62,922 bases of DNA, from NCBI GenBank assembly GCA_964347615.1, contig CAYFZO010000012.1, positions 1 to 62,922 of the forward strand, written 5' to 3'. The translations under genes were made by a program, and so were the position numbers. Under the pieces are notes generated by a model. It did no database searches. It was not told where the DNA came from and saw only the letters and a program-made list of their open reading frames with translations. The stretch is from an uncultured Chromatiales bacterium. Lineage in GTDB: Bacteria; Pseudomonadota; Gammaproteobacteria; Poriferisulfidales; Oxydemutatoraceae. Of the stretch, positions 12,001 through 22,450 are shown one piece after another. Numbering within the stretch: position 1 is the first letter of the stretch; each line of letters begins with the position of its first letter.

Positions 12001-15000
12001 GAAGCAATTTTCCTTGCCGATCGCCGACAGCAACGCGTCCTGAACCTGCGGCGTACGGTCGCAAATCCCCACCTTGACCGTAACCGACGTCCGCGACGGA
12101 GAAAGCAGAACGTAATCATCCGAAGGCGTCAGCCGCACCTCGAAAGTCTCGCCGCCGTCCCCGACCGGAATCCGAATCATCCCGCGCCGCGACCCCGCCG
12201 GGACCACAACTCTGCCGTCGTAAGCAAAGTCGGCGCCCTCCACGGCGTAGTCGACGACGAACGTCAACCGCGCCGCGGGCAAGACGTTGAAAGGCAGCTC
12301 CAGAATCGAATCTTCCCCGACCGAGACCGTGGTGGCGTCAAACGATAAGGCAATCCCTTGTTGGACTTTGTATCTGGAATCGGCATCGTCGGCACCATCC
12401 GGCAGACGCACGGAGTTAGACTCAAATTCATGAATCAACCCCGTGGCGGTGGCGCCGTTCAATTTCAACCCGTCTCTTGAGACGACCCTGATGCCGTTCA
12501 CGTCAACGTCGTCCTCCCTGAGCGCGTAGGCGAACGTCCAGACGTCGGTGGCGCTCGCGGCCGGAACGTAACTCGCGACGCGCGTCTTGTCCCCGACCCG
12601 CAGTTCCAACCACGGCACGCCACCCTGCTCCGAAGGGATCAAGATCAACTTGTCGTTGAATCGAACCTCGGCGGTAATCGTCTCCGCGCCCGCAACGTAG
12701 CCGCCCGCGTCTTGCGGACGCGGGGTGAACTCGAAACCGTCTATCGATACGGTGCCTCGAGACCCGTAGGTGTATCCGTCAAACCCAAAACTGAATCCAA
12801 AGCCGGTATAGCAGCGGGCGCGACCGCAGCCACCCGCAGGCAACGACGGCAGGACGCCTTCAGGGTAATGAAAACCCAAATCCGGCGGTTCGCCGTTAAC
12901 TCGGGCGGGAAGCACTGCATCATTGCTTTGGCTTCGTACGTCACCGGCGGCGAAGGAAAAATCGGCATTTCTTATAAATCTAATTACCGGATGCTCCGTC
13001 CGAATACCGACGTCTTCCAGAATGAAGTTAAACGGTGCGCCTTGGGCCAAGTAAGGGCGGATGGTGACCACTTCGTCGTTGCTTCGCGGGCTGGTCCCGT
13101 CAATGCCCATCTGGATGACGAAATCAAAGGGCGTACCCGGATTGTTTTCGAGAAACAGATAGCTGGAAGCGTCGCCCAGCCCAACGAGACCTTCGAATAT
13201 CCCCGCCGGTAGGATTTGCAATTCGTTGTCGCGCAAATCCAGCCCCCGCAAGCTGCTGAGGCCCAGAAAATCCCTCGGGTTGAGGCGTTCTATCCCGCGA
13301 TCGCTCAGATCCAAGGTGACCACGCCGGCCAAATCCTCGTTGGTCACCGCGGTGCAATCGTCGCGCCCGGTTACCTCCATCAGCGCGTCGCGCACCTGCG
13401 GCGTGCGATCACAAAGCCCTTCCTCGATCTCGATTGCCACCGTCGCTACGGCGATGGGAACGTAGTCGCCCGAATCCCGCAGGGACACCGTGAAGGTTTC
13501 ACGCGCCCGACCGACCCAGTCGTTGTCGGGAACGGAAACTTGGATACGCCCGCCGGATGCACCCGCCGGAATCCGTCCCGTCGGGAAGCCGCTGATGAGC
13601 GCGCCGGAGAAGTCAGACGAGAAGTTCAGATCGAACGGCCCGCTCACCGAAGGGTCGAGGGTGAAATCCAGAAACACCTGGCTCCCTTCCCTGACCGAAG
13701 CCGTGGCGACGTCAAACATTATCACGGACAGCCGCTGAACTTTTTGGTCGGGATACGTTCCACCGTGATCGGCCAAATCCAGATCCGGAGAGTTATGTCC
13801 AACCAACATATCGTCGATGGTCGCGCCGTTCCTCTCGATTCGCTCGAGGGCGATGCCGTCGTCGTCCGCCGGGTCGTCTCTCAAGAGACGGTAGCGGAAT
13901 CGCATCGCGTCGGAACCGCCTTCGGACGGCACGTAAGTCGCGCGCCTCTCGGCGTTTCCGATTGTCACAACTAGTTCAGGTTTACCTTCGACGACGACGA
14001 TCCTGCTGTCAAAAAGCACCTCGATCACGATTACGTCGAAGCCCGTGACGTAGCCGTCTGAATTTTCCCGCGACGAGACAAAACGGACGTCGCTGACCTC
14101 TGCAGGGGGCCAAAATATCAAGTTGTAGTTGTATATCTCATAGTCAATGGGGTTCCGGTAGCAACCCGGACGCAACCTGCAATTCGCGTCGGGAACATCC
14201 GCGGGGGCTCTGATCACAAAGCCGTCGTAGCAGGGGGAATAACCGCAGCCCGAATTGCCCTGAGGCAACGACGGCAACGCGGTGAACGACACCCGGACGT
14301 CGGGTATTTCGGGGGGATCGCTTCTGGTGTCCGAATGTCTGACCCGGTCTTTTCCCTCGCTGGACAATCCTCCTGCAGAAAGCGACCCGCCCGAGCCGGC
14401 AGGGTCGCTGAATTGACCGCCTTCCACCTTCCATTCGAATTCCACGTCAAACGGTGCGCCTTGGGCCAAGTAGGCAGAGAAGTCGACCCACGAGAAATCA
14501 GAAGTTGCATCGACCCTATGCGCCCTGACCTCCACCACAAGGGCAAAAGGCGTCCTCGGATCGCCGTCGGGGCCCGGGTTGCCCGAAAGGAGCAAGCTCC
14601 CGCCGTAGCCGTCAACGGCGGCGGGATTGAAATCGCGTCCCTCGAATAGCTTCGCGCGCAAGAACCCCAATCGGTTGTTGCGCAAATCCAACTGTTTCAA
14701 TTTGGGAGTATACCGAAGCAGGTCGGCTTCGAGATCCTGCAGTCGGTTGTCGCTCAAATCCAACCGCCTCAAATCGTCGAGGCCGGCGAAGCGGTTACCC
14801 CTGAGTGCTCCCCTCAACCGGTTGTGCTCCAAGTTCAACTCGCGCAGGTTGCTCAGTCCCCTGAATGCTCCTTCCCACGGCAACAATTCCAATCGGTTGT
14901 ACGACAGATCCAAGACCCGCAGTTGGTCGACGTCGCTGAACGCGGAGGGCTTCAAAAACCGCAACTCGTTGTCCGACAGATTCAGCGTTTGCAGACCGGT

Positions 15001-15363
15001 TAAGCCGTCGAACACGCCCGCCGGCAACATTTCTAACCGGTTGCCCGATAAATTCAACGTTTTCACGCCGCCCAGCCCGCTGAAATCCATCGACTTCAAA
15101 TCGCTGATGCTCCTGCCGCTCAGATCCAGAGCGGTTATGCCTTGCAACGTGTTGGGATTGAAAGCGACGCAACCCCCGTCCGTGTCCGTCGCAACAAGGA
15201 TTGCAAATTGAACCGCCAGTGTTCGTTCACACAGCGGCGGGTCGAAACCCTGCGCTTGCGCCTGAATGAAGAAACCCGTGAAGAGCCCCGCGACCGTGCT
15301 CGGCACGACCACCGAGACAAGTGCGCGCAATCGCCGCGAGATCGGCTGTAAGCTAGCCGTCAT
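1..15363 (-). CDS. Giant secreted/surface leucine-rich-repeat protein with Calx-beta-like and Ig-like repeats (>5120 aa, 3' end beyond the window)
   Basis: ATG at 15363 (in-frame TAG upstream at 15379-15381) reads MTASLQPISRRLRALVSVVVPSTVAGLFTGFFIQAQAQGFDPPLCERT..., signal-peptide-like, followed by LxxLxLxxNxLxxLPxxxFxGL repeats. The same frame is still coding-like at base 1 (...VRVTTDPVLEGDERV). The ORF track lists no stop-bounded minus ORF in this frame, implying it is open to the edge. I translated segments, not every codon. Confidence 0.9.
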   Translation of the reverse strand, partial: MTASLQPISRRLRALVSVVVPSTVAGLFTGFFIQAQAQGFDPPLCERTLAVQFAILVATDTDGGCVAFNPNTLQGITALDLSGRSISDLKSMDFSGLGGVKTLNLSGNRLEMLPAGVFDGLTGLQTLNLSDNELRFLKPSAFSDVDQLRVLDLSYNRLELLPWEGAFRGLSNLRELNLEHNRLRGALRGNRFAGLDDLRRLDLSDNRLQDLEADLLRYTPKLKQLDLRNNRLGFLRAKLFEGRDFNPAAVDGYGGSLLLSGNPGPDGDPRTPFALVVEVRAHRVDATSDFSWVDFSAYLAQGAPFDVEFEWKVEGGQFSDPAGSGGSLSAGGLSSEGKDRVRHSDTRSDPPEIPDVRVSFTALPSLPQGNSGCGYSPCYDGFVIRAPADVPDANCRLRPGCYRNPIDYEIYNYNLIFWPPAEVSDVRFVSSRENSDGYVTGFDVIVIEVLFDSRIVVVEGKPELVVTIGNAERRATYVPSEGGSDAMRFRYRLLRDDPADDDGIALERIERNGATIDDMLVGHNSPDLDLADHGGTYPDQKVQRLSVIMFDVATASVREGSQVFLDFTLDPSVSGPFDLNFSSDFSGALISGFPTGRIPAGASGGRIQVSVPDNDWVGRARETFTVSLRDSGDYVPIAVATVAIEIEEGLCDRTPQVRDALMEVTGRDDCTAVTNEDLAGVVTLDLSDRGIERLNPRDFLGLSSLRGLDLRDNELQILPAGIFEGLVGLGDASSYLFLENNPGTPFDFVIQMGIDGTSPRSNDEVVTIRPYLAQGAPFNFILEDVGIRTEHPVIRFIRNADFSFAAGDVRSQSNDAVLPARVNGEPPDLGFHYPEGVLPSLPAGGCGRARCYTGFGFSFGFDGYTYGSRGTVSIDGFEFTPRPQDAGGYVAGAETITAEVRFNDKLILIPSEQGGVPWLELRVGDKTRVASYVPAASATDVWTFAYALREDDVDVNGIRVVSRDGLKLNGATATGLIHEFESNSVRLPDGADDADSRYKVQQGIALSFDATTVSVGEDSILELPFNVLPAARLTFVVDYAVEGADFAYDGRVVVPAGSRRGMIRIPVGDGGETFEVRLTPSDDYVLLSPSRTSVTVKVGICDRTPQVQDALLSAIGKENCFDVTNQDLAGVDNVLNLDDAGVTSLRSKDFSGLTNLARLLLNDNRLQSLPSGLFEGLDNLGTLELRNNQLQSLRRDAFSGLGKLNRLRLQGNRLSSLPPGVFSGVGQAGWWLLLTDNPLSSLSAGVFSGTDGLNWLRLGNNAMTELPAGIFSGIAESLRALTLDDSGRTTFRSTLRFEFAGGAGMQLLTDGSGDIERVPVKLTVREGAAYRLRGDLRVEGGSASVSVVEIPPGATQSETFEVFPANAQAFVMRLDNPSPLPEDCISWQRGADGRCFSGLEIVAPAPFTLLDVSANTSVCDRTQAVQNALIQLWSGNNCDNVPTDLLRIATYLDLSDADLNGLTSGNFAGMESLERLDLSGSAGLQALGANAFGDLGSLKRLDLSSMGLRTLDSRAFSGLESLEQLLLYDNDLRELPAGIFSGLSGLGAPSGSLRVEGNPDDDSPRFVLPAVFRVAQVAGDALDFYLYLAQGAPFELSFLLTTQGASPGSSSATSSTVVIPAGSTRSEILSVNRASDQTLRLSLGDPPSLPQGNSGGNSGGNSGVDSEDDSAEDNSGGDSGCGYAPCYAGFEIASGPPFVYDGTRQAAQVTAVEFSAPRYFDDGYVAGMETMTVDVIFDKALIIDTSGGVPSLRLQVGSKVRRASYLLGRTGVDGLRFSYALASDDVDEDGVSVVSDGLELNGATVRDAFSVAAALSLARFVTPVAERQVHRISRLSFETSLASFTEGTTAELSFRLDPPTSVGLTVDYRVGAPGDTADDDDYIDAGDGTVTVEAGATRGTVLVSIRDDEEIEPAREFFTVSLSPSDDYFVASPSTLRVVIAEGVCDRTPKVREALTPSRFSGCAAVTEAYLSSRRRLDLSSTRMVAVKRGDFSGLAGLQELRLNGNFLRVLPEGVFSGLTGLQALDLGANPGSPFSLPLRVELAGGPQSPLAVDQPVPIRLTLRHGAPYYLDVSVSVVGGASSSPTVAIAAGSTQSEVFFVTRAPGARTLGMNVSPGDILGRLPFDQLTAFQGFEITSDERSFPATPGSPGSGPTVCGRTPGIRNAILQLPGSPAGCADFPYEALGFAAYLDASNVGLSAISREDFVPMIRLQRLDLSGNAPLQALGESVFDYLGDLKRLDLSSGGLRELHPKAFAGLGRLEQLLLQDNDLQTLPAGIFEGLTGLGSASGSLRLEGNNPDLDSNDGSLNFVLTAQLKVAGASGDDLEFYLYLPQGAPFALSFPLTATGSTGSVPSTVGISAGSTRGETMRVTRAAGQALKLSLGVAPSLPQGDSGGDSEGNSQSNSGCGYVPCYAGFEIASGEPLVYSGTPPPPLRVTGVEFSVPRYFDDAYLNDRTTPGAEAFTVEVVFDRELNVDTSDGEPELMLEIAGAVSTATYASASGSSGRLRFSYTIGCRGGDDCDGDVDEDGVHVNSANALRLNGAVVTDAFGTSANPSLADVVDVAGPKVRPGGLLRFDVASVEVVEGETFELGVTASRAVVSASVTYVIGAFGDTAGDEDYSDVGAGAISVFAGERNGTIRISIRDDEAVESPRESFTVSLSDSGSDAYFLASPAQVVVTIKEGVCDRTSQVRDALTTAVGAGACTDVTSSDLFGQTELDLSEEGIASLKGGDFSGLFRLRSLRLDDNDLRSLPAGIFAGLDLGSREGSLRLRGNPDVVSPDLVFTVEFRFVRVVGNQAELVLYLAQGAPFDVTVPLIAGGAFGSLAPSEVTIPAGEVQSARFRVGRQAEGTAPLRLGTPVPALLPRGGCGTPPCYSGFRIAASEVPFIYDDSPVPRVERVEFTPPPQYLDDGYVAGVETVVVEVVFDREPLVVDVAGGEPSLTLQVGETTRTATYVPTPAPIPAPISGAGDKLRFSYALAREDLDADGLSVASARSLQLNGATVTGYSRVNVDASLARFVSSPAGDRKVHRSHLVSFGDSGPVTIAEGDQSFVPFIVRPAPLQGASPDVGYGAGRAGDTATAGDYRLETGSTVVRVGGVETRYISVSTVDDQGIGPLSKFFTLYLMPPASGADYVVISPSSLRVTISEGVCDRTPAVRDVLSGRSGCAAVTDAHLARRSDVILYDQGITSLLSRDFSGLVNLRGLDMDSNSLQTLPEGVFAGLDKLVNLYLRDNQLQVLRADVFAGLGKLSGLSLSGNDLRALPEGVFAGLGELDDLFLNANQLQVLRADVFTGLGKLSVLNLSDNDLRALPEGVFAGLGRLRWLNLSDNDLRALPAGVFAGLGRLEVLHLNNNLRLSGLPPGLFSDLGKLEYLSLHGNGLSELPAGIFAGLSNLKGLRLDDNPGSAFTLALGFEVVGEVSDSALLRVTLREGAPYRLQADLGITGGELSIPAVEIPAGSTHSETFTASIPSGVTPVELEFSGVTAYATNGCLNRHRHPRTGECFSGLEIDYSARLVLDNVAVDPPICARTPGIRDAILALRDGVDCASFPTYALRAASRLDASAAGLSDFEPSDFNDMDALERLDLSGNAGLQALRVNAFGDGLTRLKRLDLSSGGLNSLHPRAFAGLSGLEQLLLHDNDVRELPAGLFAGLSGLGRVSGSLRLEDNPDDGSSDFVLTAAFRVVSAANDDLEFYLYLAQGAPLEVSFPLTAEGSTPVFLTTSTVTIPAGSTRSETLSVVRQTGHTLRLSLGDPSLPFQSRSQDDRLGDSGCGYAPCYAGFEIASGGSLAYEGEAGGLPSAPQATTMRFSSPRYLAAGYVAGVETIFVDVVFDRGLIVDTSGGVPSLQLSVGNREYRADYLPGRTADGVLRFSYVLAAEDLGDVSIASASGLELNGATVLDALGVAANLSLPDGFLTLVAARQVVATHLVSFDLEAISTEEVETTLELPFTVAPPARSALSVGYRVGAPGDTADGGDYAAGEVSSTVMVGAGETRGRVRVSIRDDEVPERPSEFFTVSLTPSTGSGYILASPSAVRVEITERGICDRTRLVRQRLVMLSGVFSCAKVTERDLAGYSSDLNLAGTGLSSLKRGDFFGLGKLRELNLHTNELTTLPAGVFEGLGGLRRLNLRDNELTTLPTGTFKGLGGLEELDLHDNELTTLPAGTFAGLGKLEILRLNGNRLTTLPAGTFAGLGELRELILSNSDHLTTLPAGTFAGLGKLEILRLDGNRLTTLPADIFAGLGELRNLFLSNGLLTTLPAGTFDGLGELRKLRLYRNQLVSLPKGVFRGLSNLIVLHLGSNPGANFELAVDLEPAARATVSGELSLRVVLSDGAPYSLRAGAVVSDAEISGLPGNVVTIPAGETRSEAFLVSPTGRSPTLEFIALSPPPDSCEIYERYNGQCFSGFTIDWDNEFSLDDGVSPSVSEVTVEAGKEVVARVRFSERVFVIPGSNGLNPTLSLEIGGEDRTAVYDEDLSSRDTLAFRYTPQSDDEALVDVVVPDGALDLNGASITDLADNSADLSYFGSLTLDDYSVQVRAPGDREISVVFSPGAVDVAPGSSVAFTLGTVPALLPGESATVTLTASPGVFLNGAGNVLTLHLDGETIQREEVRVSMAAGTRSGLVAAAWESFVGFEPQPPRSSLVVNPVSVTFTPDEVDVEQGDGVTVTVATMPELSPGQSATVVLTAQAGLSFGGGESVLTLRLDGATTRREVRIETSFDAPPGETGITSALSGNGFGAADEQALLSVSVRLRVVSVSVEFDVAEAVLTVSDATEVMLRLGETSGLYPGEALDFAVMTEGPGLGVDPQRVSLTESGSATVLIFARTPGERGTLTVTSVRPSAVRLEETALPVRVERDLRLSFNPAEVSLIAGGSSELVELTLERDNLLEPGETVVVTLTPSPGLEVRSESGESLSVVSLGRDAGATTRVRVSANRDADYVTPDAESLNAAASVLPDNVRVAETTLSATVEQREIRVFFEPRRITLVRGGAAPATASQTVTMRTEPELQSGEALVVSLSATGVAVVSPRGPVTLTPTDNATAVTVEATREASSGAVFVTLDEDASLLGNARVTTDTLAVAVVRGVSLSLSGYAGQDLAQFVAGGSTEVRVTTDPVLEGDERV
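2513..3075 (-). repeat. Near-identical 72/75-nt tandem repeats encoding LRR units
   Basis: ggcaacgtggtca recurs at 2585, 2657, 2729, 2804, 2876, 2948, 3020 (spacing 72,72,75,72,72,72), with a variant at 2513. Confidence 0.9.
5330..5720 (-). repeat. 72-nt LRR-coding tandem repeats with a 144-nt higher-order period
   Basis: gcccggcgaacacgccctcaggcaagg recurs at about 5406, 5550 and 5694, alternating with gacagcttaccgagaccgg units. Confidence 0.85.
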
Positions 15364-15721
15364 GCCGCCCAGCCCCCTCTAATAGAGGGGGGGATCTGGG
15401 CAGGGGTACCATTACATCGAACCTCGGCTTCACCCCTGACGGCGACGGCGTAGCGACAACGGAAAGCCGTTTGCCGAGACGGTTCACAGTCAAGAGACGT
15501 GGTGGCGGCGCAGTGATATATCGAGAGAGGGACGACGCTGAGCCACGGTCGTCGCGTACGCTCGGGCACTTACGATTGCCCCGAGCAGAAATATCTTGTA
15601 TCCCCGTCGCCCAAGTCTGCGTCCATCGGACACCCCTCCGATAAACGACTTCGCCGAACCCCCTTGGTAGAGCCATACCCATGATCCCAGCCCCCGCGTA
15701 TTCCGGATGCTAAAGACAAAC

Positions 15722-15761: not shown

Positions 15762-16110
15762 ATTTCTTCTCGATTATAGGTACGGAACTGCGCTCCAGTC
15801 AACCGGTTGATATGGGGTCAGCAGATATGAGGCAAAATCAGGTGCCGACGCCAAGATGCCCAAGCTACGCCGTATTGGTGGGCGCCCGACCGCGATTGAC
15901 CGGCGCCAAATCGGCCTCTCCCTGAAATTACCCCGATATGGCAAATAGAACGCCTTGCGCACGGTTCGGTTGACCCGCCGACGCAACCGCCCGTCCCTGT
16001 TTCCGGGAACCGTGCCGCCGTCAACGCGGAAGCTTGTACGAAATCCGCTCACGCGACAATTTCGTTTGAGTTCGGCACTATCGTGAGCACGCGTCAGATA
16101 CGTTGCTAGT

Positions 16111-16989
16111 GGGAACGTAATGTACGTAAATCCGCAAGAGATTGACAAACAGGTAGTAAAATAACGCAATGAAAGTACACCGCACAATCCGTATTCAGCC
16201 GCTTGGGCGGCAAGCGGCACGCATGAAGCATGAAGCCGGGAATTGGTACGCGTATCCGGTGTTCAATATGGAAGCGGCAGAGGCGTCAGTCCCGCGTTCA
16301 ATCCGGGGCGTCGGAATAAACCGGAGCGTCGGTCAGTTGGCGACGTCGGACGGGATGATTGACAGAAAGCGTAATCAGGAGGTTCTTGAGACTCATCTCC
16401 GACGTTACCGGCGGATGACGCTGCGCCGTGACACGGGCAGCCGTAAGAAACGCGTTCCACCGCCAGGTCGTTATCTGCGCGCTAAGTTGCCGCACCGGAA
16501 GACGCGCAAGAAGTTGCTTCACGCGCGAACGGACTGGTGCCACCGGGTATCGCGTGAGTTGACGAACCGCTACGACGTCGCGTATTCGGAAGAGCTGAAC
16601 GTCAAGGGCGTGACCGCCGGCGCGAAAGGCACGGCGGAAGCCCCGGGCAAGCACGTTGCGCAGAAAGCCGGTTCGGACAAGTCGATACCGGATACGGCAT
16701 GGAGCATCGAGCGGTGCCTGGGCTGCAAGATGAGCGTCGAAAAGGTACCGGCGGCATACACGAGCCAGCGTTGCAACGCCTGCGGGCGTACGGAAAAGGC
16801 GAATCGCAACACGCAAAGCGAATTCAAGTGCCGCAAGTGCGGACGTCGGGACAACGCGGAGATGAACGCCGCGTTGAACATCTTAGCTTTCAGGAATGGG
16901 GCGGCTGGACGTGGAGGCGGCAACGTCGGTCGGCCTTTGAAGCGTCAAGTTGATGCAGGATCCCCTGCGAATTTATGTATATAACTCCC
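16111..16989 (+). mobile_element. TIR-bounded tnpB element, copy E1 (non-autonomous, internally deleted)
   Basis: Degenerate left end gggaacgtaatgtac at 16111; right end tatataactccc at 16978-16989; flanks ttgctagt / ttgttact match at 6/8 (possible TSD); contains the tnpB ORF. Confidence 0.7.
16169..16984 (+). CDS. tnpB: TnpB-family RNA-guided endonuclease homologue, internally deleted, with altered RuvC residues (possibly a pseudogene)
   Basis: GINRSVG (RuvC-I), YSEELNV (RuvC-II), YTSQRCNACG...FKCRKCG zinc finger, NAEMNAALNI (RuvC-III); only 271 aa. Confidence 0.85.
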   Translation: MKVHRTIRIQPLGRQAARMKHEAGNWYAYPVFNMEAAEASVPRSIRGVGINRSVGQLATSDGMIDRKRNQEVLETHLRRYRRMTLRRDTGSRKKRVPPPGRYLRAKLPHRKTRKKLLHARTDWCHRVSRELTNRYDVAYSEELNVKGVTAGAKGTAEAPGKHVAQKAGSDKSIPDTAWSIERCLGCKMSVEKVPAAYTSQRCNACGRTEKANRNTQSEFKCRKCGRRDNAEMNAALNILAFRNGAAGRGGGNVGRPLKRQVDAGSPANLCI

Positions 16990-17940
16990 TTGTTACTCTA
17001 TCTTCTGACCCTCGCGTTATCACTGACCTTCCTGTTCTGGGCGGCGGACCGGATGTTGCTGAACGCGGTTGCCGTGTCGCAACACTTCCACGTCCCGCCG
17101 CTGATTATCGGCGCGCTCGTTATCGGTTTCGGCACCTCGGCGCCGGAACTGGTCGTATCCTCGGTCGCCGCGGTGAGCGGCTCCACGCAAATCGCCGTCG
17201 GCAACGCAATCGGCTCCAACGTGGCCAACGTCGCGCTGGTGCTCGGCGCAGCGGCGTTGCTCAGCGGCGTCTCGGCGACGTATTCGGCGTTACACCGAAA
17301 CTTCTTGCTCCTGCTGGCGGCGACGGCGTTGCCGGGGCTGTTGCTGCTCGACCAACGCGACTTGAGCCGCGGTGACGGACTGATTCTGCTCGCCGCGCTC
17401 GTGGTCGCCGTCTACTTGCTGGTCAAATTCGAAAGCGACGCCCCGCCTCCCGACGACGAAATACAACGCCGTGCAGTCAAACAAAGGCACGCCGAGATCC
17501 GTCTCGTCGGATTCACCGGCTTGTTGGTCGCCTTTTCCTACCTCGCCGTCTGGGCCGCGGTGAACCTCGCCGAGGCTCTTGACGTCAGCGAGCTCATCAT
17601 CGGACTGACCGTCCTCGCCATCGGCACCAGTCTGCCCGAGCTTTCGACGGTGCTGGTCGGCGCTTACCGCAAGCAACACGCGATGGCGATCGGCAACGTC
17701 ATCGGCTCAAACGTTTTCAACAGTCTCGCGGTCATCGGCCTGCCGGTGCTGATTGCCCCGGCGCAAATGCCACCGCAGGTGCTGGTACGCGACTATCCGG
17801 TGATGCTCGGCTTGACCGTGCTTCTTCCAGTCTTGTTTCTGGTTCCGCCGCGGGGGCGGGTCGGGCGCGGCAAGGGGCTGCTGCTGCTTGCGTGCTTCTT
17901 CGCGTATCAACTGATGCTGTACCGCGCGGCGTTCACCTGA
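16975..17940 (+). CDS. yrbG: Calcium/sodium antiporter (YrbG family)
   Basis: Two alpha-repeats GTSAPE...GNAIGSNV and GTSLPE...GNVIGSNV; multiple TM helices; upstream of kdsD. The start may instead be TTG at 16990. Confidence 0.9.
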   Translation: MYITPLLLYLLTLALSLTFLFWAADRMLLNAVAVSQHFHVPPLIIGALVIGFGTSAPELVVSSVAAVSGSTQIAVGNAIGSNVANVALVLGAAALLSGVSATYSALHRNFLLLLAATALPGLLLLDQRDLSRGDGLILLAALVVAVYLLVKFESDAPPPDDEIQRRAVKQRHAEIRLVGFTGLLVAFSYLAVWAAVNLAEALDVSELIIGLTVLAIGTSLPELSTVLVGAYRKQHAMAIGNVIGSNVFNSLAVIGLPVLIAPAQMPPQVLVRDYPVMLGLTVLLPVLFLVPPRGRVGRGKGLLLLACFFAYQLMLYRAAFT

Positions 17941-18053
17941 ACCGGCGTGGAGAACCTCAGCATCCGGATCACGTAGGCAAAGGACAAACCGCAGGGGAAC
18001 AACGCGCCTCGCTCGCGCAAGCACGCCGTTCGTCTGACGCTTGGCGCACCGGC

Positions 18054-18129
18054 AGGCGGCGACGTCGGTCGGCTGATGAAACGTCGAGCTGACGCAAAAG
18101 TCCTATAGCAACTATTGTATATAATTCCC
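18054..18129 (+). mobile_element. Right-end remnant E3 of the tnpB element (tnpB 3' end / putative omega-RNA region plus TIR)
   Basis: aggcggcgacgtcggtcggctgatgaaacgtcgagctgacgc...tgtatataattccc aligns by eye with 16915-16989 and about 21305-21383. Confidence 0.75.
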
Positions 18130-18176
18130 TTGCAAACGCTCTCAAAGCTGCGGTGCAACGCGCCCCGCCGAACACC

Positions 18177-19151
18177 ATGGCACTTGACCACGACAAGATA
18201 AAGGCACTCGCGCTGACGGTGCTCGACACCGAAGCGCAGGCGATCGAAGCGCTGAAGACGCGCGTCGGCGAAGCATTTTTCGAAGCCTGTCGGTTGTTGC
18301 ACGACTGCAAAGGGCGCGTCGTACTGATGGGCATCGGCAAATCGGGACACATTGCAAATAAGATCGCCTCGACGCTGGCGAGCACCGGAAGTCCGGCTTT
18401 CTACATCCACCCGGCCGAGGCGGGCCACGGCGACTTCGGCATGTTGTGCCGCGACGACGTCGCCGTATTGGTTTCTCACTCGGGTGAAACCGACGAGGTC
18501 AACGTGCTGCTCGCGCCGCTGAAAGACCTGAAGATTCCGGTTATCGCGCTGACCGGCGAACCGAACTCGACGCTCGGCAAGGCCGCGACCACGTGCCTCG
18601 ACTGCGGCGTCTCCCAGGAAGCGTGCCCGCTGGGACTTGCGCCGACGGCGAGCACCGCCGCCGCGCTGGCGATGGGCGACGCTCTTGCGACCGCCCTGTT
18701 GCTGACCAAAGGCTTCACCCCCGACGACTTCGCCCGCACCCACCCCGGCGGGCGGCTCGGGCGCAGGCTGATCCTGCGCGTCGAGAGCCTGATGCGCACG
18801 GGCGACGCGATTCCCACGGTACCCGCCGGAACGCCGTTGATGGACGCGCTGTGGGAGACGTCGGCGAAAGGGCTCGGGATGACCTTGGTTACCGACGCCG
18901 ACGGGCGAGTCGTCGGCATATTCACCGACGGCGACTTGCGCCGGGCGGTGGACAAGCGCGTCGACGTGCACGCGACGCCGATTGACGCGGTCATGACCAG
19001 GGATTTTCACTCCGCCCGCGTCGGCGAACTGGCAATCGAAGTGCTGGCCGTGATGGAAGCGAAAAAAATCAACTCGATGCCGGTGCTCGACGAAGACGGC
19101 GAACTAGCGGGCGCGCTCAATTTGCATATATTGCTGCACGCTGGCCTGTAA
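18177..19151 (+). CDS. kdsD: Arabinose-5-phosphate isomerase (SIS + 2 CBS domains)
   Basis: GIGKSGHIA, HPAEAGHGDFG, APTASTA and HPGGRLG motifs; ATG at 18177. Confidence 0.95.
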   Translation: MALDHDKIKALALTVLDTEAQAIEALKTRVGEAFFEACRLLHDCKGRVVLMGIGKSGHIANKIASTLASTGSPAFYIHPAEAGHGDFGMLCRDDVAVLVSHSGETDEVNVLLAPLKDLKIPVIALTGEPNSTLGKAATTCLDCGVSQEACPLGLAPTASTAAALAMGDALATALLLTKGFTPDDFARTHPGGRLGRRLILRVESLMRTGDAIPTVPAGTPLMDALWETSAKGLGMTLVTDADGRVVGIFTDGDLRRAVDKRVDVHATPIDAVMTRDFHSARVGELAIEVLAVMEAKKINSMPVLDEDGELAGALNLHILLHAGL

Positions 19152-19177
19152 CCGAGCTGTAACCGGCGCCGGGGCGC

Positions 19178-19906
19178 TTAGATGCGGAAATCCCGCCCCA
19201 GATACACTTGTCTCACCCGCTCGTCGGCAATCACTTCGCCGGCCCCGCCCGCAGCGATGACCTCCCCCTGGTTGACGATGTAGGCGCGGTCGCAGATGCC
19301 CAGCGTCTCGCGCACGTTGTGGTCGGTAATCAGCAAGCCGACGCCGTAGTCGCGCAACCGGCGCGTCAACTCTTGTATTTCGGCGACCGCAATCGGATCA
19401 ACCCCGGCAAAAGGCTCGTCGAGCAGAATGAACGCCGGCTCGGCGGCGAACGCGCGCGCAATCTCGACCCGGCGCCTCTCCCCTCCCGACAAAGCGAGCC
19501 CGTAACTCGAACGCACCTGCCTGATGTGAAACTTATCCAGCAGCTCCTCGAGTTTCGATTCGCGTTCACGCCGACTCAAGCCGCGACGGGCCTCGATCGC
19601 AACCATCAAGTTGTCCTCGACCGTGAGCTTGCGGAACACCGACGCTTCCTGCGGCAGATAACCGATGCCACGTTCGGCGCGCGCGTGCATCGGCAGCCGC
19701 GAGACGTCCTCGCCGTCCATCGAGACTCGCCCGGCGTCGGGGTCGACCAAGCCGACGATGATGTAAAACACCGTGGTCTTGCCGGCACCGTTGGGACCGA
19801 GCAGGCCGACGATTTCGCCGCTGTTGACGACAAGGGACACCGAACGCACCGCGCGGCGGCCCCTGTACTTCTTGCTCAGACCGGACGCGACCAACTCGTG
19901 GGACAT
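19178..19906 (-). CDS. lptB: LPS export ABC transporter ATP-binding protein
   Basis: GPNGAGKTT, YLPQEASVF, LSGGERRRVEIAR, LLDEPFAGVDP, ITDHNVRETL. Confidence 0.97.
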   Translation of the reverse strand: MSHELVASGLSKKYRGRRAVRSVSLVVNSGEIVGLLGPNGAGKTTVFYIIVGLVDPDAGRVSMDGEDVSRLPMHARAERGIGYLPQEASVFRKLTVEDNLMVAIEARRGLSRRERESKLEELLDKFHIRQVRSSYGLALSGGERRRVEIARAFAAEPAFILLDEPFAGVDPIAVAEIQELTRRLRDYGVGLLITDHNVRETLGICDRAYIVNQGEVIAAGGAGEVIADERVRQVYLGRDFRI

Positions 19907-19915
19907 CGCCGCGCC

Positions 19916-20488
19916 TCAGGGATCGATCGTCAGGCGCACGCGCCCCTTGCTTTTCGTCGCGTCCACGATCCGCTTCTCGAGATCGTAGACGATTCGTCCT
20001 CCCCGCAACACTTTTTCACCGTCGTCAACTCTGGCGTTGCCCAAAAACACGATGATCCGTCGTTTGACGTCGTACTCGACCACGTCGGCTTCGGCGCGAA
20101 TAAGGCCTTCTTCGGAACGGCTTTCGAAAGTGCTGGGGTTCGCACGAGCCGTGATGCGGGAAATTTCTCCGGCTTCTGAAAACACTTCGACTTCGTCCCC
20201 GGTCAGATGTACGTCGTCGCGACGGACAACAACGTTGCCGCGGTAGACGCTGCGGCCGGTGTTCCTGTCGTAGTGGATGCTGTCAGCCTCCAAGTCTATG
20301 CCGCCCTCACCCCGACCCGCTTCCCGAGGCGCGCCCTGGAATGCACCCTGAAATGCGCCCTGGGATGCGCCCTGGGATGCACCCTGGGATGCACCTCGGG
20401 ACGGATCTTGATCCTCGGCCCACAACGGTGCCCACGCCGCGACGACGCCGAACGCGACGCCGAAGCACAGGCGTTTCCTACTGTTCAT
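19916..20488 (-). CDS. lptA: LPS transport periplasmic protein LptA (with a GASQ repeat insertion after the signal peptide)
   Basis: Signal peptide; OstA-like IDLEAD...YRGNVVV...GGRIVYDL...GRVRLTIDP; lies between lptC and lptB. Confidence 0.9.
   Translation of the reverse strand: MNSRKRLCFGVAFGVVAAWAPLWAEDQDPSRGASQGASQGASQGAFQGAFQGAPREAGRGEGGIDLEADSIHYDRNTGRSVYRGNVVVRRDDVHLTGDEVEVFSEAGEISRITARANPSTFESRSEEGLIRAEADVVEYDVKRRIIVFLGNARVDDGEKVLRGGRIVYDLEKRIVDATKSKGRVRLTIDP
20331..20400 (-). repeat. 12-bp tandem repeat in lptA encoding (GASQ/GAFQ)x5-6
   Basis: gatgcgccctgg-like units; translation RGASQGASQGASQGAFQGAFQGAP. Confidence 0.9.
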
Positions 20489-21032
20489 GCCGCCCTCTCA
20501 CGTCGCCGAGCAAACTGACCTCTCCGCGTTCAAGGTCGGCAACCATGCCGCGCCCTTCCATCCGTTGTCCGCCGCGCTCGATGACCACCCGTTCCTGCGT
20601 CACCGCAATCCACTCCTCGGTCTTGACCTCGACGTCGCGGGTATCCACCGTCTCCACGGCACCTTCGACACCGGCGGGACGAATCAATTCGACCGCGCCG
20701 TCGAGCTTGACCAAGCGACCTTTCTCCAACACCCTCCCCGACTCCGAGCGCAACGACATGGTTTGCACCCCGTCGGAGTAATACCGCATTTCAAGCGGGT
20801 CGAGCGCGAGCATCCGGCTTTCGCGCCAGTGCCGCACTCGAGCGCTTTCGCTGTGGTAGCGCCTGAGCCCGTCCGGTGCATAGACGCTCGAAACAACCTC
20901 GCTCAGTTCTCCGTCCACGGCGGGAGGGGCGCCGGCGGGAAGCGGCGGCGAAGCCGCGGGCAGCAGGTACGGAATCACCGCGAGCAAAGCGACGACGACG
21001 CAATAAAGCGGAAACACGGAACGATTCATCAT
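20478..21032 (-). CDS. lptC: LPS export periplasmic protein LptC
   Basis: N-terminal TM helix then a beta-jellyroll-like region ending GRGMVADLERGEVSLLGDVRG; upstream of lptA; ATG at 21032 or 21029. Confidence 0.85.
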   Translation of the reverse strand: MMNRSVFPLYCVVVALLAVIPYLLPAASPPLPAGAPPAVDGELSEVVSSVYAPDGLRRYHSESARVRHWRESRMLALDPLEMRYYSDGVQTMSLRSESGRVLEKGRLVKLDGAVELIRPAGVEGAVETVDTRDVEVKTEEWIAVTQERVVIERGGQRMEGRGMVADLERGEVSLLGDVRGRHEQ

Positions 21033-21383
21033 GGGAACTATATACCGAAATCTACACCGAACCTCTACCAAGCTGTGAAACAGCCCCGTGCTGATAAAGC
21101 TTGAGCGGTGCTTGAGTTACAAGACGTCGGTGGAGAAGGTGCTCACGGCATACACGGGTCAGCACTGCAACGCTTACGGACGCACTGAGAAAGCGAACGG
21201 AAAGGAACAAAGCGAGTTCAGGTGCCGCGAACGCGGGCGTCCGGACAATGCGGACGTGAATGCCGCATTGAACGTCCTGGCCTCCGGGAACGGGGCTGCC
21301 GGGCGCGGAGACCGCAACGTTGGTTGGCCGTTGAAGCGTCAAATTGATGCGGAAGTCTCCGTCGGTTCTTGTACATAACCCCC
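21033..21383 (+). mobile_element. Complete TIR-to-TIR miniature element E2 (351 bp) carrying a decayed tnpB C-terminal fragment (21088-21378)
   Basis: Left gggaactatata at 21033-21044; right tacataaccccc at 21372-21383; internal frame ...AYTGQHCNAYG...DNADVNAALNVL...RQIDA is homologous to E1 tnpB; fills the kdsC-lptC gap. Confidence 0.8.
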
Positions 21384-21385
21384 GT

Positions 21386-21913
21386 TCATTTCGAGCAATA
21401 CTCAAGCACCTCTTCCCACTGGCCTTGTTCCTTGATCAGGGCGTCGCACAGCTCACGCGCCGCGCCGCGACCGCCGTCGGCGCGCGCGACCCAATGCGCA
21501 CGTTTTATGACCTCAGGATGCGCGTCGGCGACCGCACACGCGAGACCGGCACGGCGCATCGGCGCAATATCCGGCAGATCGTCGCCCATGTAAGCCGACT
21601 GCTCGGCTTCGACGCCGCAGGCTTCGAGCAGACGTTGAAACGCCGCTCCCTTGTCTCGTTCCCCCTGATACACGTGCTCGACGCCGAGCTCCTCCATGCG
21701 CCGGGCAACGGCGGCGGAACGCCGCCCCGAAAGCACCGCGACCTGTACGCCGTAGTGGAGCAGCAAGGAGATTCCGTGGCCGTCCTTGACGTTGAACGCC
21801 GGTCCACCCCGCCCCTCGTCGTCGAAATAAAGCCGTCCGTCGGTCAATACGCCGTCGACGTCAAAGATCACGAGCCTGACGGAAACCGCGCGGCGTTTGA
21901 AAGAGTCGCTCAT
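21386..21913 (-). CDS. kdsC: KDO-8-phosphate phosphatase (HAD family)
   Basis: FDVDGVLTDG, FNVKDGHG, YMGDDLPD, GGRGAARELCD. Confidence 0.95.
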   Translation of the reverse strand: MSDSFKRRAVSVRLVIFDVDGVLTDGRLYFDDEGRGGPAFNVKDGHGISLLLHYGVQVAVLSGRRSAAVARRMEELGVEHVYQGERDKGAAFQRLLEACGVEAEQSAYMGDDLPDIAPMRRAGLACAVADAHPEVIKRAHWVARADGGRGAARELCDALIKEQGQWEEVLEYCSK

Positions 21914-21944
21914 CGGAGATTTTGCCGAGCAGGGAGTATAAAAT

Positions 21945-22050
21945 GGGAATTATATAGGAAAGTCGACAAACAGGCATTAAAATAACTCCATGAAGACTCA
22001 CCGAGCAATCCGCTGTCGCGTTCACCCGAAAAGTGAGTCACAGGCGAAGC
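21945..22050 (+). mobile_element. Left-end remnant E4 of the tnpB element (TIR, leader and first tnpB codons)
   Basis: gggaattatata at 21945-21956; gacaaacaggcattaaaataactccATGaagactcaccgagcaatccgc matches E1 gacaaacaggtagtaaaataacgcaATGaaagtacaccgcacaatccgt (MKTHRAIR vs MKVHRTIR). Right boundary approximate. Confidence 0.75.
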
Positions 22051-22126
22051 GTCGGCGGTTTTGCGCAACGCACCGAAACAAAACAGAAACGGCGTCCAGC
22101 GTAGCGCCAAGTACAAGCGAGGTCTT

Positions 22127-22450
22127 ATGAACGTTCAACTGTCAGCGCAACACATCGAAATCACCGAAGCCATCCGCGACGTCATCGAGGAAAAGATGGC
22201 GAGACTCAGAAACCACTTTGACAACATGGTGGACGTCCACGTGAACCTCAAGGTGGAAAAATTGAACCACACCGCCGAAGCGACGATCCACGTGCGCGGA
22301 CACACTTTATTCGCCGTGGCCGTCGCCGAAGACATGTACGCCGCGATAGACGCCTTGGTCGGAAAGCTCAACCGCCAGATCATCAAGCACAAAGAGAAAC
22401 TCAAGAGCCACCACGAAAAAGAGGTGGTTCATCATCATCCGCGGAAATGA
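22127..22450 (+). CDS. hpf: Ribosome hibernation promoting factor
   Basis: MNVQLSAQHIEITEAIR...DMYAAIDALVGKLNRQIIKHKEK; ATG at 22127 after GAGG. Confidence 0.95.
   Translation: MNVQLSAQHIEITEAIRDVIEEKMARLRNHFDNMVDVHVNLKVEKLNHTAEATIHVRGHTLFAVAVAEDMYAAIDALVGKLNRQIIKHKEKLKSHHEKEVVHHHPRK

Follow-up and report, generated by a model that had tools for sequence, protein, structure and literature searches.

By what enzyme is a tnpB gene moved when it lies between inverted repeats of a DDE transposon? In the IS200/IS605 family the elements have no inverted repeats and make no target duplications, and their insertion beside a fixed motif of 4-5 nt is the work of the Y1 HUH transposase TnpA. The window analyzed here, a stretch of 62,922 nt from an uncultured Chromatiales bacterium, contains four tnpB-related segments (E1-E4). 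The reading that explains the data best overall is that they are dead remnants of non-autonomous IS1595-family transposons with tnpB as the sole gene, and we consider it very probable.

Remnants in the window and intact copies of the family

The window was scanned for the end motif GGGAAYTATATA with at most one mismatch allowed, the background being estimated from 100 shuffles. This 12-mer gave four matches (16978-16989 and 18118-18129 on the minus strand, 21033-21044 and 21945-21956 on the plus strand) versus 0.03 expected, and none of the 100 shuffles reached four; the four remnants which the initial annotation had located within 6 kb are thus real and lie where it placed them. An intact 1321-bp copy from the same genome (C23:231-1551) served as the blastn reference for the remnants, along with the copy on contig C4.

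E1 (16111-16989, plus strand) is an internally deleted, diverged tnpB element, which aligned with positions 8-79 and 512-1321 of the reference at about 73% identity and has lost approximately 430 bp internally. Its left repeat is degenerate, as had been claimed, and the right one has one mismatch. The tnpB pseudogene (16169-16984, plus strand) is an open frame of 271 aa, identified by the Pfam Cas12f1-like_TNB domain (7.6e-13) and by alignment with intact copies, according to which about 145 N-terminal residues are missing; its RuvC-I motif reads GINRS, not GIDRN, and its RuvC-III motif NAE, not NAD. The dN/dS ratio was 0.24-0.31 between E1 and the intact copies versus 0.16 between the intact copies themselves. 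The TAA stop codon (16982-16984) was correctly seen in the initial annotation to fall within the right repeat. A putative omega-RNA-like scaffold together with this repeat occupies 16884-16989 on the plus strand, where nhmmer aligned positions 2-119 of the family profile at E 2.6e-19.

The other three segments, all on the plus strand, are shorter. E2 (21033-21383), an internally deleted copy, matched the left end and positions 1041-1292 of the reference and retains the Pfam TNB domain (8.2e-9); it consists of the left repeat, roughly the last quarter of tnpB, an omega-RNA-like scaffold predicted by nhmmer at 21278-21382 and a right repeat that is indeed degenerate, with three mismatches. E3 (18051-18129) is a solo right end that matches profile positions 30-119 (nhmmer E 1.5e-5); of the omega-RNA-like scaffold it retains the 3' portion, which an exact repeat follows. 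It lies in the yrbG-kdsD spacer, where the same-genus genome G026 has a 1247-bp tnpB pseudogene element and G025 has none. E4 (21945 to about 22040) is a solo left end corresponding to positions 1 to about 95 of an intact copy (the blastn alignment spans positions 45-109), its repeat (21945-21956) being exact and the initial tnpB codons starting at 21990; its flank is common to G024, G025 and G026, all of the same genus, as far as tataaaat and diverges beyond. All four copies in the window are dead, inactive remnants.

Intact copies in the same genome are 1.32 kb long and encode TnpB (415-419 aa) as the sole product between inverted repeats, each about 25 bp long. The family was sampled at 80 related tnpB loci, mostly from metagenome-assembled genomes of sponge symbionts and from several phyla, and both ends were present at 40 of them. 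Elements measure 1.25-1.4 kb with tnpB as the only gene: a short leader is followed by a TnpB of 405-420 aa with intact RuvC and zinc-finger motifs, the frame of which extends to 5-28 nt from the right end. The outer 12-13 bp of the repeats (GGGAATTATATAC) are nearly invariant and their inner part is lineage-dependent; two more diverged copies (L052, L070) have the variant repeat GGGAnTTATA, with duplications matching at 8/8 positions. The protein scored 200 bits against the TnpB model NF040570 (cutoff 100) and matched the structures of ISDra2 TnpB at E 1.6e-21. A census of the window's genome revealed 2 intact tnpB genes and 35 right-end segments; no intact IS1595 transposase was detected in it, only truncated fragments on contigs C22 and C20, and the tnpB/IS1595 system looks extinct, or nearly so, in this genome.

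Target duplications, empty sites and the predicted RNA scaffold

Among the 40 complete elements, the flanking 8-mers were identical (8/8) in 22, agreed at 7/8 in 3 and at 6/8 or fewer in 15. Recombination between copies explains some of the low-match duplications, as in L048 and L076, the flanks of which are swapped; the remaining ones either are unexplained or reflect wrongly paired ends. Within the genome of the window, atttataa flanks the C4 copy (91509-92831) on either side, and aaacgttt does so for a 222-bp derivative on contig C53.

Empty sites were recovered for three insertions. The first belongs to an intact copy in the window's own genome, the one with the exact duplication: at locus L003, public contigs from runs X1 and X2 connect position 1460 directly to 2792. 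They skip 1331 bp, the length of the element (1323 bp) and 8 bp more; the joint leaves 8 letters ambiguous and has short contig sides (34 and 26 letters). The four runs all stem from one study, which possibly includes the source sample of the assembled genome. For E1, a single TTGCTGCT in G024 corresponds to TTGCTAGT before and TTGTTACT after the element in the window, and each of the two copies (ttgctagt, 16103-16110, and ttgttact, 16990-16997) agrees with it at 6/8 positions. For E2, the single GTTCATTT of G024 is identical at 8/8 positions to the right copy in the window (gttcattt, 21384-21391), and the left copy (attcatcat, 21024-21032) has decayed to ATTCATCAT; G025 and G026 likewise lack E2. 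The tnpB elements insert with AT-rich 8-bp target duplications, then, and empty sites for them exist. The decayed duplications that the initial annotation had suspected at E1 and E2 are borne out by these same-genus genomes, the exact duplications and empty sites that it expected elsewhere in the family occur, and homology stops at the repeats, as the empty sites demonstrate, rather than running past them.

The predicted RNA fold of the right end is conserved, shows covariation and ends at the right inverted repeat, which supports, at the level of sequence comparison, the earlier idea of an omega-RNA ending there. Its three helices were paired at 92.9%, versus 76.3% in shuffles and 31-47% in slid controls, and contained 73 compensatory cells versus 26 expected (0 of 500 shuffles reached 73), counts that are inflated, because the sequences are related and helix 3 was itself traced by eye on them.

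IS1595 elements as probable partners, and the alternatives

The initial annotation had envisaged full-length copies with an IS1595 transposase beside tnpB. This part did not hold: at none of the 80 related loci was an IS1595 transposase present within 4 kb of tnpB, no full-length element with both genes was found among them, and the tnpB elements are non-autonomous, their size leaving no room for a second gene. PF12762 matches were, however, obtained in all five relatives' genomes tested. Seven elements bounded by the exact 12-mer carry the transposase with methylase or restriction-modification genes (duplications 8/8 in five, 7/8 in one); four additional autonomous elements, plus one in G026, have 8/8 duplications, as do all 13 passenger-free IS copies (1271-1410 bp). 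The partner transposase scored 215 bits against NF033547 (cutoff 75). Autonomous IS1595-family DDE elements share their ends and duplication length with the tnpB elements and coexist with them in the same genomes, including one of the window's genus. In G002 the ends of the two kinds agree at 24 of 26 positions, the repeat of the autonomous element in G026 resembles that of the C4 copy in the window's genome, and a 257-bp derivative (L143) combines the left end of the autonomous element L129 (55/60 identical) with a tnpB-type scaffold and right end. Across 53 genomes of the order, an IS1595 DDE match was found in 18 of 20 with the family's TnpB versus 9 of 33 without it; the two exceptions are the complete genome G054, where 16 TnpB matches contrast with zero IS1595 DDE matches at E 1e-10, and G047, with a single weak TnpB match and no such DDE match either. 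Since the tnpB elements lack a transposase gene yet have IS1595-type ends and 8-bp duplications, they would be moved by a transposase encoded elsewhere, and because these ends are shared with IS1595 elements, an IS1595 transposase presumably acts on them in trans.

It is unlikely that an unrecognised enzyme or TnpB itself moves the elements and that their ends came to resemble those of IS1595 through recombination or convergence. Such a mover would fit the failure to find an IS1595 transposase within 4 kb of tnpB at any of the 80 loci, the 16 TnpB matches of G054 with its zero IS1595 DDE matches, and the fact that one insertion in the window's genome varies across the population although this genome has no intact transposase; against it stand the identical outer 12-13 bp, the agreement of inner repeats within one genome, the equal duplication length, the chimeric derivative with one end of each type and the prevalence of IS1595 in TnpB-positive genomes, and TnpB is not known to have strand-transfer activity. 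We give almost no credence to the view that these are ordinary IS200/IS605-family, IS1341-type tnpB-only elements moved by Y1 TnpA, their repeats being coincidental or part of subterminal hairpins. The family TnpB does score 154 bits with the IS200/IS605 TnpB model, although under its cutoff of 425, some repeats are palindromic in their inner part, and the closest relatives without repeats are of IS605 type, but exact 8-bp duplications of variable sequence at 22 of the 40 complete elements already contradict this view, as do empty sites with one copy of the 8-mer, IS1595 transposase genes bounded by the same ends and zero matches to Y1 TnpA in the window's genome. The initial placement of tnpB between IS1595-type repeats, as opposed to an element of the IS200/IS605 or IS607 kind, is upheld by the same duplications and same-ended transposase elements. 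Very unlikely, finally, is an exaptation of E1 as a nuclease-dead, TldR-like TnpB, which the RNA of its own right end would direct to where the yrbG-like gene begins. In its favour are the persistence of an open frame, the replacement of two acidic RuvC residues (D to N, D to E), a dN/dS different from 1 and the full length of both scaffold and right end; yet the N-terminal residues lost by E1 putatively comprised, judging from their position, the RNA- and TAM-binding domains, its pairwise dN/dS also covers the period in which the copy was an active element and exceeds that between intact copies, G024 lacks E1, and no conserved E1 orthologue was found.

Relation to known systems, origin and consequences

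The partners may belong to the ISNwi1 group, reportedly characterized in ISfinder by the consensus ggnnatTAT and an 8-bp duplication. This IS1595 ISNwi1/ISNwi1+ group, reportedly treated in ISfinder and by Siguier and colleagues in 2009, is said to share with our elements the repeat start GGnnATTAT and AT-rich 8-bp duplications, and with the partners a DDE transposase that has a zinc ribbon at its N terminus (PF12760 and PF12762) and, in many of them, passenger genes, as in ISNwi1+. The tnpB elements differ in having no transposase and in a passenger that would consist of an RNA-guided nuclease and its guide RNA, and the passenger-free partners are longer than the 1080-1200 bp reported for ISNwi1. 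Like the IS1341 group of IS200/IS605, the family has a length of about 1.3 kb, a single tnpB, a putative guide RNA that overlaps tnpB at its 3' end and, besides numerous decayed copies, short derivatives in which the right end is retained; it departs from IS200/IS605 in having repeats, in having duplications and in not being moved by Y1 TnpA to a fixed motif.

Six DDE-associated TnpB branches, DDE-1 to DDE-6, with inverted terminal repeats have been described, as well as solo TnpBs with ends like those of transposase-carrying elements, implying mobilisation in trans (Altae-Tran et al., 2023, PNAS, PMC10691335). As in those branches, inverted terminal repeats enclose TnpB here and its 3' end is near the transposon end; what defines the branches, however, is a DDE gene next to tnpB, and none was found at our 80 loci. 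The partner family named in the main text of that paper is IS630, IS1595 occurring there 0 times, and the text of a 2026 review (PMC13565253) names ISL2, IS630 and IS1031. The principle that DDE-linked TnpBs are moved in trans has thus been known since 2023; judging from that main text, IS1595 seems to be a partner family not yet named. Fanzor1 and Fanzor2*, which occur in cut-and-paste transposons of eukaryotes and viruses (Yoon et al., 2023, NAR, PMC10711439), are, as presented there, similar in being lone TnpB-type nucleases in non-autonomous elements with inverted repeats and target duplications. Unlike them, our family is prokaryotic and has IS1595 as partner; its duplication is a variable 8-mer and therefore would be part of the guide rather than of a fixed scaffold.

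The tnpB and omega-RNA module may have been captured from an IS605-type element, because its nearest relatives without repeats (L077 and L078, 32% and 28% identity) have Y1 TnpA directly upstream. In a quick TnpB tree, a branch with SH-aLRT 100 united 15 rows, 12 without the repeat motif and 3 with a one-sided match, and all 40 two-repeat rows fell outside it, as did two spurious long-branch rows without repeats (L092, L100).

The insertions have reshaped two host genes. An ATG within the right end of E1 (16975-16977, plus strand) is now the sole in-frame ATG of the downstream yrbG-like antiporter gene (16975-17940), which in G024 begins ATG TTG CTG CT at the insertion target of E1, and E1 thus gives this gene its start codon; an in-frame TTG at 16990 is an alternative start. 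E2 split the ATGA overlap of kdsC and lptC, its left duplication copy now supplying the ATGATG start of lptC and its right one holding the kdsC stop codon, both on the opposite strand. For the family itself, about the last 165 nt of the element would be transcribed as the omega-RNA; with the scaffold ending at the right repeat, the guide would comprise the 8-bp duplication and the following flank, and TnpB would cut the empty allele and so favour the copying-back of the element.

Remnants of tnpB elements in the window

The initial annotation had claimed that four homologous remnants in the window derive from a tnpB gene carried between IS1595/ISNwi1-like inverted repeats. These remnants are real, as the end motif GGGAAYTATATA, allowing at most one mismatch, occurs four times in the window against an expectation of 0.03. 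Across the Chromatiales genome to which the window belongs (2.12 Mb, 60% G+C) the exact GGGAAYTATATA was counted 25 times, and TnpB matches number 23, only two of which retain full-length open frames: a tnpB of 419 aa on contig C23 (C23:287-1546) and one of 415 aa on contig C4 (C4:91514-92761), located in elements of 1321 and 1323 bp, respectively, both terminating in inverted repeats. In alignments with these two intact copies, which served as the reference, E1 (16111-16989) displayed about 73% identity with about 430 bp deleted internally, E2 (21033-21383) was reduced to its left end plus ~340 bp at the right, while E3 (18051-18129) and E4 (21945 to ~22040) comprised a right and a left end, respectively. 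The possibility that E3 and E4 are halves of one split element was rejected, since their flanks disagree (3/8).

The frame of E1 encodes 271 aa and is devoid of about 145 N-terminal residues. Both intact TnpB proteins possess the GIDRN, EDL and NADVNAALNI motifs, with the presumed catalytic acidic residues of RuvC, and the two CxxC pairs of a zinc finger; E1 reads GINRS for GIDRN and NAEMN for NADVN, and is consequently without intact RuvC acidic residues. The dN/dS ratio was 0.24-0.31 for E1 versus the intact copies and 0.16 for C4 versus C23. Judged by its sequence, the tnpB of E1 is a decaying gene, and the copies in the window are ordinary decayed, dead insertions.

That the proposed repeats are true element ends is borne out by 8-bp target duplications and by empty sites. 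The C4 copy, which interrupts a glycosyltransferase-like frame, has atttataa at both flanks, and the duplications of the C4 and C53 copies are 8/8. Empty sites, the search for which had been recommended in the initial annotation, were found for E1 and E2 in genomes of the same genus and for C4 in public contigs. For E1, the empty site is the beginning of the yrbG-like gene in G024, with the sequence ATG TTGCTGCT, and in the window the element is flanked by TTGCTAGT on the left and TTGTTACT on the right. For E2, which is absent also from G025 and G026 (two further genomes of the genus), the kdsC/lptC junction of G024 contains GTTCATTT once, where the window has ATTCATCAT to the left of the element and GTTCATTT to its right. 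At the C4 locus, a joint skipping 1331 bp was detected in two runs with short sides of 34 and 26 letters, and two more runs had a joint that was offset, its sides measuring 53 letters; all four runs come from one study with three samples at most, possibly including the source sample. The skipped length is the sum of the 1323-bp element and one 8-mer, and 8 letters at the joint could belong to either side, the hallmark of an empty site. The yrbG-kdsD spacer, where E3 is positioned in the window, is occupied in G026 by a tnpB pseudogene element of 1247 bp whose repeats are exact and whose flanks are TTAAAACA on one side and TTAAAATA on the other; the spacer of G025 contains no element.

Two of the insertions involve the starts of host genes. 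E1 entered the yrbG-like gene directly behind its initiation codon, and the sole in-frame ATG of this gene now lies in the right end of E1 (16975), with a TTG at 16990 as an alternative. E2 entered the four bases (ATGA) by which kdsC and lptC overlap; the right copy of its duplication has kept the kdsC stop codon, and the left copy has mutated, giving a new ATGATG start for lptC. E1 and E2 represent two cases of host genes re-using transposon ends.

Several further features of the window and the genome were recorded. The kdsC-lptC-lptA-lptB genes (window 19178-22450) run in the direction opposite to that of yrbG-kdsD and hpf-ptsN-hprK-rapZ; a recent inversion between element copies was rejected as the cause, the order being collinear in G025 and G026. 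There is no rpoN between lptB and hpf, and the Sigma54_DBD family gave no match anywhere in the 97.2%-complete genome. Near its N-terminus the LptA-like product of lptA (window 20330-20400, minus strand) contains a short tandem peptide repeat, ASQG three times and then AFQG twice, encoded by a near-perfect 15-nt DNA repeat. Upstream of E1, the segments 13500-15366 and 15810-15991 contain no convincing ORF and recur elsewhere in the genome in up to 6 and 8 other copies, respectively, at 78-93% identity (e.g., on contigs C29, C39, C63, C17, C16 and C6), which looks like another repeat family. Finally, four tandem sulfotransferase-like paralogues were located at C9:18500-25400, with a methylase-HNH gene and a fucosyltransferase-like gene between them; the element end motif is present at the 5' end of three of the paralogues, overlapping their first codons within a duplicated stretch.

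Distribution and origin of the tnpB family

TnpB, the ancestor of Cas12, is usually considered a helper of scarless-excising 'peel-and-paste' IS605/IS607 elements. The membership of the present proteins in this family is evident from the NF040570 score (200.5 bits vs a cutoff of 100) and from the ISDra2 TnpB structures 8exa and 8h1j, which match residues 10-386 at E 1.6e-21. A search of a species-representative genome collection with the C4 TnpB as the query returned 80 loci, mostly from metagenome-assembled genomes titled as sponge-associated lineages, with Pseudomonadota, Thermodesulfobacteriota, Chloroflexota, Spirochaetota, Rhodothermota/Bacteroidota and archaea among the hosts. In 40 of the 80 loci the 12-mer (at most 2 mismatches) flanks tnpB on both sides, its two occurrences being 1260-1565 bp apart, plus one 457-bp derivative. 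Exact 8-bp duplications, which the initial annotation had advised looking for, were present in 22 of these 40 two-ended relatives; 3 others had 7/8 and the remaining 15 fewer. The two inverted repeats of an element match each other at 23-30 of the first 40 nt in most of the 40 (range 18-39), and the more diverged bacterial loci L052 and L070 combine variant repeats with 8/8 duplications. In five of these genomes the exact 12-mer was counted 53, 25, 6, 12 and 4 times, and its reversed control 0 times in each. The distance between the tnpB stop codon and the element end is 5-28 nt in 45 of 47 copies, 8 of which use the TAA inside the right repeat as their stop.

Rearranged forms were encountered as well, including those in genome G001. 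Two of its tnpB copies, L048 and L076, have their flanks interchanged (aaaaacaa / aaaaaaag in one, the reverse in the other), suggesting inversion by recombination between copies. At L039 (2118-5232) the tnpB element extends to 3115 bp because a 484-aa transposase gene, IS4/IS1380-like by eye and probably a nested insertion, sits between the left end and tnpB. The short derivatives L143 (G001:C1:3348971-3349227, 257 bp) and L140 (237 bp) keep an omega-RNA-like scaffold and have perfect or 7/8 duplications.

The closest homologues devoid of inverted repeats, L077 (32% identity) and L078 (28%), each have a Y1 TnpA gene directly upstream of tnpB, and Y1 TnpA (PF01797) was found in 5/5 genomes whose distant TnpBs are without inverted repeats. 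The TnpB phylogeny proposed in the initial annotation was reconstructed by a quick search with SH-aLRT support only and midpoint rooting. One branch with support 100 united 15 rows, namely 12 without the repeat motif and 3 with one-sided matches, and all 40 rows with both repeats fell outside it, as did L092 and L100, spurious ORFs on long branches without repeats. Such a topology fits a single capture of an IS605-type tnpB with its guide-RNA module by an IS1595-type element, the direction of which would rest on the midpoint root.

Partner transposases

The expectation that full-length copies would be accompanied by an IS1595 transposase held in part: IS1595 elements with the same ends do exist, but no IS1595 transposase was found within 4 kb of tnpB in any of the 80 loci, so that the tnpB elements cannot be autonomous IS1595 members. 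The initial annotation had also named a contrary outcome, intact copies associated with Y1 TnpA or a serine recombinase and lacking duplications; the 97.2%-complete Chromatiales genome contains 0 matches to Y1 TnpA (PF01797), and the duplications are present. The IS1595-type sequences of this genome are truncated fragments only. One of them, at C22:11089-12360, is what is left of a transposase gene, now truncated and frameshifted; an N6_N4 DNA methylase gene comes after it.

IS1595 DDE genes are present in 5/5 genomes of relatives tested. The exact 12-mer bounds seven DDE-gene-bearing elements of 2.5-3.5 kb, five with 8/8 duplications and one with 7/8, the transposases of which (307-326 aa) possess PF12760 and PF12762 and match NF033547 at 215 bits; their passengers are a DNA methylase or a restriction-modification pair, e.g., N6_N4_Mtase with an Eco47II-type endonuclease. 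Four additional autonomous elements with 8/8 duplications were found, two of them copies in G005, and the window's own genus is represented by an autonomous 2549-bp element with an 8/8 duplication in G026. Other relatives contain passenger-free IS copies (n=13, 1271-1410 bp), all with 8/8 duplications. The sole case of proximity is L133, where an autonomous element harbours a nested tnpB element that is itself flanked by an 8/8 duplication. A protein search of PLSDB with the transposase gave only 'IS1595 family transposase' and ISPepr2 at 38% identity. The terminal sequence GGGAATTAT fits ggnnatTAT, presumably the end consensus of the ISNwi1 group. As for the passengers, complete restriction-modification systems in IS1595-type elements were observed at L123, L125, L126, L128 and L156, and comprise N6_N4 methylase with Eco47II-type endonuclease, N6_Mtase with a specificity domain, and a methylase-HNH fusion.

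The two ends of the partner elements match each other at 19-25 of 25 positions. Within a genome, the likeness between tnpB elements and autonomous ones exceeds the invariant 13 bp (in G002, 24 of 26 positions agree), and the 257-bp L143 of G001 is a chimera of an autonomous left end (55/60 identical) with a tnpB-type 3' region and right end. Among 53 genomes of the order, an IS1595 DDE match was registered in 18 of 20 TnpB-positive versus 9 of 33 TnpB-negative ones; these genomes being kin, the co-occurrence is a description and no test. The two TnpB-positive genomes with no such match are G047 and G054. The latter, a complete genome of the same order, has 16 TnpB matches and no IS1595 DDE match at E 1e-10; either the transposase was lost there after the elements had spread, or another mobiliser exists. 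The simplest reading of these data is that the tnpB elements are moved in trans by IS1595 transposases.

The predicted 3' RNA scaffold, the flanks and their possible meaning

When the 3'-terminal 220 nt of 31 copies were aligned together with 20 nt of flank, nucleotide conservation was well above the expectation from a protein identity of 37-57%. Three helices, two obtained from RNAalifold and the third added by eye, are paired in 92.9% of cells vs 76.3% in shuffles and 31-47% in slid controls, with 73 compensatory cells vs 26 expected, a value reached in 0 of 500 shuffles. Covariation thus supports a predicted conserved RNA fold at the 3' end of the element. A candidate pseudoknot between the helix-1 loop GGGAAU and AUUCCC, the six bases with which the element ends, is weakly supported because its columns are mostly invariant (88.2% paired vs 84.8% in shuffles and 78.5% at a -1 slide; 7 compensatory cells vs 2.2 expected). 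A profile of the 3' region recognized 35 segments in the Chromatiales genome, 3 of them in the window; set against two intact tnpB genes, this number implies that most copies are derivatives keeping the right end. Rfam searches of the intact copies with E up to 1 gave only two chance-level sRNA matches, both outside the element, and in the whole window a tRNA was the only match above the gathering score. The putative omega-RNA would be about 150-190 nt long, starting near the GGCCUCCGGGAAU block and extending about 16-20 nt past the right repeat, and its guide would consist of the 8-bp duplication and the adjoining flank. IS605 TnpB and the Fanzor elements described in PMC10711439 are the analogues from which we infer this guide model.

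The flanks proved to be polar. Counts were restricted to elements with duplications of 7/8 or 8/8, the direction of tnpB giving the orientation. The base directly left of the left duplication was G in 21, A in 4 and T in 2 cases of a first set (n=27), and A in 10 and G in 6 of a second (n=16, drawn from 41 regions, two of the 16 being one orthologous insertion). Over both sets it was a purine in 41/43 and G in 27/43, and C stood in 2/43 at the mirror position beyond the right duplication. Against a simple preference of the transposase, the bias is absent in the 13 passenger-free IS copies. Against a simple TAM of TnpB, 8 of 11 methylase or restriction-modification elements without tnpB also have a one-sided G, seen as C at the mirror position when the transposase gene sets the orientation. 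The polar base accordingly cannot be read with confidence as a TAM or as a mere preference of the transposase.

A more far-reaching interpretation, which we regard as rather improbable, assigns the right inverted repeat two roles, those of transposase substrate and of the 3' end of the omega-RNA scaffold, so that the guide would start with the duplication and TnpB would home into empty alleles. The AUUCCC end would then pair with the GGGAAU loop about 150 nt upstream, the homing TnpB would act for a DDE cut-and-paste element, and the TAM could have the polar left-flank base as its 3' end. Extra guides for the few TnpB proteins might come from the 33 right-end segments of the Chromatiales genome that have no intact tnpB. 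If true, this would be a prokaryotic counterpart of Fanzor in inverted-repeat transposons.

Compared with IS200/IS605 elements of the IS1341 group, the present ones are distinguished by inverted repeats and variable 8-bp duplications instead of fixed-motif insertion, Y1 HUH TnpA being found neither in cis nor elsewhere in the Chromatiales genome. With the IS1595 family they share inverted repeats and 8-bp duplications, and differ in that the transposase gene resides only in partner elements. Six TnpB branches, all with inverted terminal repeats, were described as DDE-associated, and the ends of solo TnpB elements as nearly identical to those of transposase-bearing ones (Altae-Tran et al., 2023, PMC10691335); IS630 is named in the main text of that work, where 'IS1595' and 'ISXO2' have no occurrences. 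Unlike the DDE-associated branches as presented there, a DDE gene beside tnpB within the same repeats was found in 0/80 loci here. In its account of such families, a 2026 review (PMC13565253) lists ISL2, IS630 and IS1031, regards DDE transposons with OMEGA systems as a rarity among prokaryotes and raises the question whether such elements can gain any benefit from them. No literature linking TnpB to IS1595 was found, as judged by title or abstract. The present clade may be one of the DDE branches left unnamed in the main text of PMC10691335, and IS1595 appears to be a new partner family for TnpB. As far as sequence data go, the association of tnpB with the transposase is purely in trans, and families moved in this way are missed by association screens for transposase genes adjoining tnpB.

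The elements are abundant, reaching tens of ends per genome in some hosts, and occur in several bacterial phyla. Clean ends, duplications, empty sites and an identified partner transposase render the question whether TnpB can benefit DDE elements testable, in that one may ask whether a TnpB with a guide beginning in a variable duplication homes into empty sites, and from where it would obtain its TAM. From the practical point of view, the family yields a set of compact TnpBs of ~410 aa that seem to have been under selection recently, and their guide-RNA scaffold can be defined.
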